Assembly (NCBI GenBank): GCA_963767005.1
Contig: CAVYCN010000018.1
Span: 1-64,000 of the forward strand
DNA length: 64,000 nt
Source of the DNA: an uncultured Actinomycetes bacterium
Lineage (GTDB): Bacteria; Actinomycetota; Thermoleophilia; UBA2241
Direction of reading: 5' to 3'
Under the pieces are notes generated by a model. It was not told the DNA's origin. It searched no databases and was given only the letters and a program-made list of their open reading frames with translations. A program made the translations under genes and the position numbers. Below are positions 35,972 through 37,405 of this stretch, one piece after another. Position 1 is the first letter of the stretch, and the number at the start of each line of letters is the position of its first letter.

Positions 35972-37405
35972 CTAGTGCTCCCGTCCGTGGTCCAGCGCCG
36001 GCTCACGCACCAGGCCGGTCTTGCGCTTGAGCCGTTCCACACAGTTGATCCTGATGTCGAGCAGCTCGGCGATGCGGGCCTTGGCCTCGAGGCCCTTGGC
36101 CACACCCGGCACGGCGGTCACCGTGCCGATGTCGAGCTCCTCGCGCAGGGTGCGCATGAGGGTCGAGTCGGACAGGTCGGACACGCCGACCCCGAGCTTG
36201 TCGGCCACGTATGCCTTCGCCTCGGGGAGCCTCATCTTTCTGAGCTGCATCCTGGCCACCAGATCTCCAGCGGTCTTGATGCCGCCGATCGACGAGGCAA
36301 GCGCGTGCGCCATGCCCATGCCGTTCGGGTCGCCGGTACCCACCTATAACCCGTCGGCGCGGCCGATCTCGACCATCGCCGCGCTGGCTCGCGTGACCAT
36401 GTCGATGGGCGAGACCTCGAACATGGGCACGCCGCCGACGCCGTTGCCGACGTTCGGGTGGATCGGGATCGTCGCCTCGGCGGTGCAGGCCTGCACGAAG
36501 GTCACCGCGCGCGCCACGTTCCAGGCGCACGACTTCTTCGAGTTGTTGTTGACGACCGGCCCGAAGATGGCGGCGCCGGCCTTCTCGACGACCTTCACCT
36601 GCTGGTGCGGCCAGAGGCCGGCCAGGCGCGTGCCGTCGTACTCGAGCTCGCCGTGGAAGCCGAGCACGTTCTCGGCCGCCATGCCGATCTGGACGGCCAT
36701 GTCGGTGGTGCTCGAGATGTGCTCGCAGGCGCGCAGGGTGGCGAGGAACTCGGCGTCGCCGGTCGAGGCCACCGTGTCGTAGTTGATGCCGTCGGCGGCC
36801 ACCTCGACCATGCGCTCGGACAGCCAGATGGTGTCGGCCTGGCAGACCTCGAGCGCCTCCTCCTGCGTGCGCCGTGCCTCGTCGATCTTGCCCAGCGGCA
36901 GCAGGTCGGACGGGTTCTCGAACGAGCCGTCGGGCCGGTAGTAGAGGCCGAGGTTCGGCATGAAGCCGTAGAGCAGCGGCAGGATGGTGATGTGCTGGAG
37001 CAGCTCCATGTGCTCCTGCTCGACCGTAGCGATGAACTTGCAGGGCTTCACGGAGTAGTCGAGGTGACCGACCTCCATCGAGTCGAAGGCGAAGGCGGTC
37101 TCGAACAGGCGGATCGCCTGCTCGCGGCTGATCGGCGCGGCGATGCCGCTCGACAGGCGCGACGAGCAGAGCGTGTTGACCGAGCCGTCCTTGCTCATGA
37201 CCGCCTCGTGGCCCCGCTCCACGCCCCAGATCCGCTGAGGGCTGGCGAACATGTCCTCGAGGTAGTCGAGCTCGTTCTCGCAGAGCGGCGGCATCTTGCC
37301 CCTCGCGGCGGCTGCCTCCGTGCCCTCGACGAGGTCGCGACGCAGGTCGTCACGACTCATCTGCACGGTGGCGCCGTCCCCCATGCGCGTCGTGATGGTG
37401 CTCAC
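35972..37405 (-). CDS. mtbB: Pyrrolysine-containing dimethylamine methyltransferase MtbB homolog (in-frame TAG at 36344-36346, codon 354; 477 aa)
   Basis: N-terminal TRMGDG and [12 protein letters not shown]. It reads [10 protein letters not shown](TAG)-VGTGDPNGM...[13 protein letters not shown]...[12 protein letters not shown], matching the MtbB Pyl context. GTG start with a GGAGG RBS. Confidence 0.9.

Follow-up and report, generated by a model that had tools for sequence, protein, structure and literature searches.

Pyrrolysine (Pyl)-containing genes for dimethylamine-type methylamine:corrinoid methyltransferases (mtbB) have already been published for the Actinobacteriota. Metagenome-assembled genomes of this phylum from peat express both Pyl mttB and Pyl mtbB (Ellenbogen et al. 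2023, PMC10805028), and the supplement to that work identifies the active genus Bog-752 with Thermoleophilia UBA2241 and reports MtbB hits for it. The Olavius delta-1 symbiont, a deltaproteobacterium, has six MtbB proteins (Zhang and Gladyshev 2007, PMC1976440), and two Actinobacteria with PylRS have been reported (Guo et al. 2022, PMC9630628). We describe an mtbB gene whose reading frame holds an amber codon, at 35972..37405 on the reverse strand of a 64,000-nt stretch of DNA from an uncultured UBA2241 bacterium (positions 1 to 64,000 of contig CAVYCN010000018.1, assembly GCA_963767005.1; hereafter the window), together with a candidate RNA signal on the 3' side of that codon.

How a cell that uses UAG as a stop tells a Pyl codon from a stop has been an open question since 2005–2007. 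A search for structure in bacterial Pyl genes found 'no obvious common structure' and urged further searches (PMC1976440). A subsequent study reported no common structure for mttB and differing structures for mtbB and mtmB (Theil Have et al. 2013, PMC3639795). No Pyl targeting mechanism is considered known or validated in the available text of PMC12626013 and the 2024 code-34 preprint, and codon context and mRNA structure are left as untested possibilities in PMC13663744. The mtbB gene described here is by itself an ordinary member of a known family. What is new is that, in these bacteria, a hairpin and a codon context appear to set Pyl codons apart from stops.

The mtbB reading frame begins with a GTG at 37405, preceded by a GAGGAGG ribosome-binding site, and continues for 353 codons to an in-frame TAG (codon 354, 36344..36346, reverse strand). 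A further 123 codons lead to a second TAG (35972-35974), which is the true stop. The 477-amino-acid read-through product matches PF09505 with 608.7 bits over model positions 4-462 of 463, and TIGR02368 with 497.7 bits against a curated equivalog cut-off of 369.1. The first-pass annotation, made from the letters alone, had called the gene an MtbB homologue, and these full-length matches bear it out. It had also joined two open reading frames through the TAG at 36344-36346, which is correct, except that the upstream frame starts at 37405 and not at 37543. The amber codon lies in the context GRADGL-*-VGTGDP. All 82 distinct full-length MtbB homologues first compared (82 of 82) have TAG at the aligned codon, as do 102 of 102 in a later, larger set, which places it at the Pyl site of the family, as had been proposed. 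Of the 120 database homologues listed, nearly all are 346-356-amino-acid products that stop at the Pyl position, and the called product of a methanogen MtbB homologue stops at the same alignment column.

The neighbouring gene, a Pyl-type mttB of 495 amino acids (34355..35842, reverse strand; TIGR02369, 714.7 bits against a cut-off of 525; terminal TAG), is likewise interrupted at its family's Pyl position, by a TAG at codon 328 (34859-34861, reverse strand) that is preceded by GGT GCG. This part of the initial annotation stands. In addition, the source genome (3.4 Mb) encodes tRNA-Pyl(CUA) (pylT), and PylB, PylC, PylD, PylSc and PylSn each score over their curated cut-offs. The mtbB TAG is very probably read as pyrrolysine, judging from this invariant position and the accompanying machinery.

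The gene could instead be a nonsense pseudogene, or a split gene whose second half is re-initiated at the GTG following the TAG. The codon after the TAG is GTG in 88 of the 102 homologues, gene callers annotate two open reading frames, and a GGAG precedes a later GTG. However, the same codon is GTA, GTC, GTT, CTG, ATT or ATA in other homologues, and the break would fall within a barrel strand of the predicted protein model. The first-pass annotation had judged chance pseudogenisation very unlikely, and pseudogenisation can be rejected because the TAG is invariant and the downstream part is under stronger rather than relaxed selection: by simple Nei-Gojobori counting in this high-GC genome, the median ratio of nonsynonymous to synonymous substitution rates is 0.175 downstream of the TAG versus 0.323 upstream (31 homologues of at least 75% identity). 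The Pyl machinery is also intact. Either form of this explanation is extremely improbable.

UAG is also a common stop codon in this organism. TAG ends 755 of 2330 confidently called genes (~32%; gene ends from a purpose-built codon-based gene caller), and many of the TAG-ended genes directly precede a separate gene. TAG terminates pylSc, pylC and the mtbB and mttB genes of the window, so that UAG carries both meanings even inside a single gene. In total the source genome has 16 Pyl sites, in 8 of 8 mtbB genes, in 7 of 41 MTTB matches and in 1 of 4 MtmB genes.

Alignment folding predicts a hairpin 3' of the Pyl codon in both window genes, a feature that, like the synonymous-codon signals described below, the first-pass annotation had not noted. 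The mtbB hairpin (36256..36273, reverse strand) has a 7-bp stem that may extend to 36247-36282 and a tetraloop, AGAU, at 36266-36263, which starts 80 nt after the U of the UAG. The mttB hairpin (34778..34793, reverse strand) has a 6-bp stem and an AGGG tetraloop at 34787-34784, starting at 74 nt, and the mtmB counterpart lies at +116. The consensus loops are AGAY at +80 for mtbB and AGGN at +74 for mttB. The loop A is the third-position base of a rare codon. In mtbB this is GGA at codon +26, present in 30 of 30 representatives (less than 85% identity; GGA usage about 3%), and in mttB GCA occurs at codon +24 in 24 of 25 representatives and TTG at codon +23 in 21 of 25. These are the strongest downstream codon constraints in the two families, and in the folded alignments they correspond to a stem whose closing tetraloop starts with the third-position A. 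Weaker rare-codon constraints are seen outside the core hairpin, at codons +5 and +39/40 (GAT, AGG) of mtbB and at +11 and +33 (GGT, GGG) of mttB.

Both stems show covariation. The pairs are kept in 89% of cells for mtbB and 94% for mttB, and covariation as strong as that observed occurs in 0 of 500 shuffles for mtbB and in 1 of 500 for mttB, where the shuffles ignore the relatedness of the sequences. The third-position pair at mtbB columns 78:87 covaries (CG in 19 sequences, UG in 7, GC in 3), and the conserved G-U pairs point to structure at the RNA level. Under a synonymous-shuffle null, with the low-GC Bacillota rows left out, the hairpin is found in 28 of 29 mtbB versus 0.4 expected and in 18 of 24 mttB versus 0.02 expected; for mtmB the per-gene p values are 0.002-0.011. 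In an unbiased scan of all hairpins with 3-6-nt loops over whole genes, the AGRN hairpin (R, A or G) ranks first in both mtbB and mttB. Folding of whole 150-nt regions gives weak z-scores (-1.1 and -1.3), and the local hairpins alone give about -2.2.

The hairpin follows Pyl codons closely. With the rule of an AGRN loop starting at +60 to +125 and a stem of at least 5 bp, it occurs at 16 of 16 Pyl sites of the source genome versus 21 of 922 other TAG codons. Among controls it is found at 41 of 1819 TGA codons, 3 of 125 TAA codons and 105 of 6036 random in-frame coding positions. Within the window both internal TAGs carry the hairpin and four terminal TAGs do not. No hairpin was identified in non-Pyl MttB genes (0 of 27 in the source genome and 0 of 27 in the loci compared) or in non-Pyl MtmB genes (0 of 3). 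In mtmB genes with the Pyl codon it is present at +116 in 3 of the first 4 sequences and in 4 of 4 further intact ones.

Further sequence sets were searched with a narrower rule (loop start +72 to +82) that had been fixed beforehand. In a second Thermoleophilia family the hairpin is found in 22 of 22 mtbB versus 0.8 expected, two of these genes being repeats from the discovery set. The metagenomic loci, which lack taxonomy and in many cases carry split pyl genes, are the top 80 among 379 that were confirmed. The hairpin occurs in 56 of 73 metagenomic mtbB (5.6 expected) that span a third-position GC content (GC3) of 0.32-0.88, and the loop A is present in all 73. Together, these largely independent mtbB loci carry it in 78 of 95 cases versus 6.4 expected, and mttB genes of the second sets in 24 of 30 versus 0.6.

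The codon immediately 5' of the Pyl codon is also constrained. In the window mtbB it is TTA (36347..36349, reverse strand), a leucine codon that makes up 0.14% of leucine codon usage in the source genome; TTG accounts for 2.2%, and the two together (TTR) for 2.3%. Among 81 called genes ending in Leu-TAG, 14 have TTR, and 12 of these are Pyl genes. Stated by site, TTR is used at 12 of 12 Pyl sites with leucine at this position versus 2 of 69 other TAG codons. In the 102 mtbB homologues the preceding codon is TTG in 83, TTA in 13, TAC in 4, CTG in 1 and TTC in 1, and in the second Thermoleophilia family (f4, loci L244-L271) it is always TTA. In the second sequence sets a leucine at this position is TTR in 88 of 94 cases versus 22.9 expected. 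In contrast, non-Pyl MttB genes with leucine at the equivalent column have CTN in 18 of 18 cases, and so do 12 related mtbB genes of one clade with leucine before the terminal TAG (a comparison that leaves out the L079 row, its 'terminal' stop being in fact the internal TAG). In mttB genes with alanine before the Pyl codon, the codon before that is mostly the rare GGT (54 of 65 overall). In actinobacteria TTA is decoded by the bldA-type tRNA, and an effect of the P-site tRNA on release factor 1 (RF1) is one possibility for this bias.

The hairpins and TTR codons might be functionless by-products of protein conservation and shared ancestry. Most stem bases fall at first or second codon positions, the shuffles would yield the mtbB stem by itself in 12.7 of 29 sequences, and the sequences are related while the shuffle controls ignore phylogeny. 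Against this, codons at 2-3% usage are fixed across paralogues of only 48-71% identity and across a GC3 range of 0.32-0.95. Three non-homologous families converge on the AG loop, and third-position pairs covary at mtbB columns 78:87. We regard this explanation as quite improbable; that the hairpin and the preceding codon context are under selection is well supported by the comparisons above.

Our overall interpretation is that the gene encodes an intact MtbB whose UAG is likely read as Pyl, and that the hairpin and the preceding codon probably bias the ribosome towards inserting Pyl rather than stopping. The weakest step is the action of the hairpin on decoding, which we consider only somewhat favoured. 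Most simply, the hairpin would bind a protein through the invariant A-G of its loop, lowering termination by RF1 or raising the local supply of Pyl-tRNA, and our best guess at its function is a read-through enhancer resembling the pyrrolysine insertion sequence (PYLIS). A broader proposition is that bacteria using UAG both as a stop and for Pyl mark their Pyl codons in cis with an AGRN-tetraloop hairpin and a U-rich upstream codon, convergent in mtbB, mttB and mtmB, and that this is a true bacterial insertion signal, read by some factor and portable to engineered amber suppression. We would give that proposition an even chance.

The principal rival holds that Pyl is inserted simply because Pyl-tRNA competes with RF1, with regulation of the pyl genes setting the balance. 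Here the hairpin would be real and have another role in amber mRNAs, such as shielding them from decay or from polarity when translation ends prematurely, or serving as the binding site of a common regulator. Several points weigh against our overall interpretation, and some of them favour this competition. The spacing from UAG to loop differs by family (74, 80 and 116 nt), and 74-116 nt is far outside the ribosome footprint. We did not find a dedicated elongation factor in the source genome, including beside the pyl genes; the translation factors present are one selB next to selA, two EF-G, IF-2 and LepA, with EF-Tu missing from the assembly, and no SelB-like factor was found besides this ordinary selB. 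The hairpin rule was drawn from these same sequences, and its permitted loop start was broadened from +72..82 to +60..125 once mtmB had been looked at. As the sequences are related, the counts exaggerate their independence; in the second family 2 of the 22 mtbB and 1 of the 3 mttB are repeats from the discovery set, as is one near-identical metagenomic locus. Exceptions also occur: among the 73 metagenomic mtbB, 17 fall short of the 5-bp requirement (a 4-bp core remains in 16, and L223 lacks the stem), 6 of the 30 second-set mttB and the mtmB of L133 fail the rule, and the Bacillota mttB in L097 shows no such stem. On the protein side, the window MtbB is only 41% identical to Methanomethylophilaceae MtbB and differs in the loop at residues 70-90. 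Finally, the mtmB PYLIS of archaea is described as non-essential (2010 review, PMC2933860), with a dispensable or modest effect there and none in E. coli (PMC2933860, 2024 code-34 preprint), and read-through in Methanosarcina has been modelled as supply and demand with no sequence signal (PMC12626013, PMC13663744). However, the UAG lies at codon 212, 328 or 354 in three unrelated genes, and it is the UAG that the element tracks, not the beginning or end of the gene. Non-Pyl homologues have lost the element, and there is a separate constraint on the codon directly before the UAG. This rival is rather unlikely in our view.

We found no further Pyl proteins in the source genome among 52 TAG-ending genes with coding-like downstream sequence, among the remaining 2 genes with TTR-TAG or at the remaining 21 TAGs with a hairpin. 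A fusion of MtbB and MttB was considered, as in the window mttB shares the frame of mtbB's terminal TAG, and rejected, as the frames in relatives vary (0, 2, 2, 0, 0, 2, 1, 0...). One non-Pyl MttB match (C10:37067-38566) has an in-frame TGA near its start, which is probably the boundary with the preceding gene. A single record, P0126, is a 463-amino-acid full-length MtbB homologue without an amber codon and with tryptophan at the Pyl column, a possible non-pyrrolysine MtbB.

The pyl genes are spread across 10 kb (contig C3:236048-246496) and interspersed with other genes in the order pylSc, corrinoid gene, radical S-adenosylmethionine (SAM) gene, pylSn, SulP transporter, pylT, pylD, pylC, pylB. 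We did not find a conserved gene of unknown function beside the pyl genes, apart from the radical SAM gene, which stays near pylSc/pylSn in several genomes of the family. The initial annotation described MtbB as less commonly reported in bacteria, which overstates its rarity given the published cases of 2007 (PMC1976440) and 2023 (PMC10805028) and the number of genes found here. MtbB is present in 34 of 36 genomes of the family, with up to 15 matches per genome, and in 1 of 24 other genomes of the class; PylSc is present in 32 of 36 and 1 of 24, respectively. In a scan of Actinomycetota genomes Pyl-mttB was found in 2 of 401, and in a scan of Bacillota classes 1 of 300 genomes was over the cut-off, with one genome not scored.

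The eight MtbB paralogues of the source genome are 48-71% identical and form two deep clades. Six 'short' paralogues (C3:157097, C18:96347, C18:97906, C18:101967, C6:54427, C11:80248), which form their own clade, are missing an 11-residue loop behind the first barrel strand, have 4-5 extra residues inserted close to the C-terminus, and may act on other substrates. A phylogeny against archaeal and Firmicutes MtbB had been suggested. In a quick tree, without bootstrap and with Methanosarcinales absent, the window protein is nested in a Thermoleophilia clade with the C2 paralogue, and the Methanomethylophilaceae sequences (41% identity) stand apart.

An AlphaFold model of the protein (mean predicted local distance difference test score 90.2) is confidently predicted to be a TIM barrel, with residue 354 in the strand 352-355. 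The best fold matches are TIM barrels, MetH 1q7m (Z 18.1, root mean square deviation 3.5 over 251) and MtaA 4ay7 (Z 18.0). MtmB and MttB are not among the best 50 fold matches listed, which is no evidence of a difference, and the PDB holds no solved MtbB structure.

Dimethylamine is the probable substrate, based on family membership. Another secondary N-methyl amine, freed from an imported compound by a CocE hydrolase and two MttB proteins, could be used instead, with the eight paralogues sharing out such substrates. The depth of paralogue divergence and the missing loop in six copies fit this idea, as do the 41 MTTB matches in the genome and a conserved gene order, from an ABC importer through CocE, MttB, TetR, MtbB, MttB and the corrinoid protein to an aminotransferase, in the closest relatives (L043, L045, L047). 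On the other hand, the window MtbB passes the TIGR02368 equivalog cut-off and keeps the full-length loop, and it adjoins a Pyl-MttB much as methanogens pair trimethylamine and dimethylamine methyltransferase genes. The alternative amine is possible but doubtful; it bears on the substrate alone and does not conflict with the decoding model.

If dimethylamine or a similar N-methyl amine is used, MtbB would move its methyl group onto the neighbouring corrinoid (B12-binding) protein, the likely methyl acceptor (33619..34254, reverse strand), which is identified from profile matches. This gene lies two genes downstream of mtbB and scores below the MtbC cut-off (178 versus 350). The source genome has a single AcsE-like methyl-tetrahydrofolate (THF):corrinoid methyltransferase and a formate-THF ligase, both over cut-off, and one RACo-type activase, and no MtrH/MtgA-type acceptor enzyme was found in it. 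Transfer of the methyl group to THF by the AcsE-like enzyme, followed by oxidation, is the simplest reading of this gene content. Oxidation would proceed via the formate-THF ligase branch because acetyl-CoA synthase (PF03598) is not seen in the source genome, which is listed as 100% complete yet lacks tuf; the enzyme is found in 38 of 60 family genomes. H2 is a possible outlet of methyl oxidation, given the [FeFe] hydrogenase and Hdr/Mvh-like genes of the window. The 41 MTTB matches and three non-Pyl MtmB homologues stand against only one methyl-THF:corrinoid methyltransferase and one RACo-type activase.

The remaining genes of the locus are also on the reverse strand. A gene for a TetR-family regulator (37581..38288) is directly upstream of mtbB and adjoins this mtbB in most relatives. 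It is followed by a non-pyrrolysine MttB homologue (38294..39742), which has no hairpin and has CTC (leucine) at the position equivalent to the codon before the amber; a CocE/NonD-family hydrolase identified from profile matches, with an uncertain start (39756..41585); and a peptide-type ATP-binding cassette (ABC) importer (41592..46966) comprising an ATPase, two permeases and a family-5 binding protein, of which the ATPase and permeases were named by sequence inspection. On the other side lie a class III aminotransferase (32222..33586) and genes for a type II glyceraldehyde-3-phosphate dehydrogenase (GAPDH), a phosphoglycerate kinase and an isocitrate/isopropylmalate dehydrogenase-family protein (28580..32026), all syntenic in close relatives. 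The archaeal-type (type II) GAPDH and phosphoglycerate kinase genes travel with the aminotransferase in relatives and are upstream of mtbB in L083, L084 and L095. Elsewhere in the window are an [FeFe] hydrogenase with maturation genes (113-7719), a hyp/mvh/hdr-like cluster with a NiFe hydrogenase (48598-61319), and a tyrosine integrase gene adjoining tRNA-Thr (61844-63066) that marks the start of an integrated element.

The extreme codon bias of this lineage exposes the selected bases (the loop A, its stem partners and the preceding codon), and the question of how Pyl codons are distinguished is therefore testable by short mutagenesis. If the decoding interpretation is true, the two elements would provide a predictor of bacterial Pyl genes and might allow site-specific read-through of amber codons to be raised for genetic-code expansion. 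Given the expansion of mtbB across the family, these actinobacteria are likely to be major consumers of methylamines under anaerobic conditions.

Compared via family models, the window gene resembles Methanosarcina barkeri MtbB1-3 in its TIGR02368/PF09505 score, in the single in-frame UAG at the family site and in the adjacent corrinoid protein and Pyl-mttB. It differs in its bacterial host (Thermoleophilia), the eight paralogues, the split PylSn and PylSc, and a likely onward acceptor of THF rather than coenzyme M. Like the peat Actinobacteriota and Olavius delta-1, this bacterium has Pyl-mtbB in several copies; however, the accessible text of PMC10805028 and PMC1976440 describes no cis signal, whereas the window gene has a candidate one. 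In contrast to the genome-wide TAG=Pyl code of archaea ('code 34'), TAG serves here as a stop as well.

With regard to known RNA elements, the window matches Rfam PYLIS_2 (RF02509, mtbB) at 36247-36346 with 51.7 bits (gathering threshold 36) and PYLIS_3 (RF02510, mttB) with 70.4 bits (gathering threshold 38), and both models cover coding sequence, so these matches partly reflect gene homology. RF01982, the mtmB PYLIS, is not among the Rfam matches of the window, and the mtmB of this genome lies outside that scan. Our comparison of the hairpin with archaea is limited to the Rfam consensus. A stem-loop with loop aGAc already figures in the PYLIS_2 consensus where the mtbB hairpin lies, whereas the PYLIS_3 consensus structure lacks the mttB hairpin described here. 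The available text of PMC3639795 does not contain an AG-tetraloop shared across the three families, codon-level selection or a bias in the preceding codon, and no description of the shared tetraloop or the codon bias was found in the literature searched, which leaves most subscription papers outside its coverage. The classical PYLIS starts within a few bases of its codon (PMC3639795, 2024 code-34 preprint), as does the bacterial selenocysteine insertion sequence (SECIS; PMC1976440), while the hairpin described here is short and lies 74-116 nt away. In common with the mtmB PYLIS (RF01982) and with SECIS/SelB, it is a coding-region hairpin positioned 3' of a recoded stop codon.

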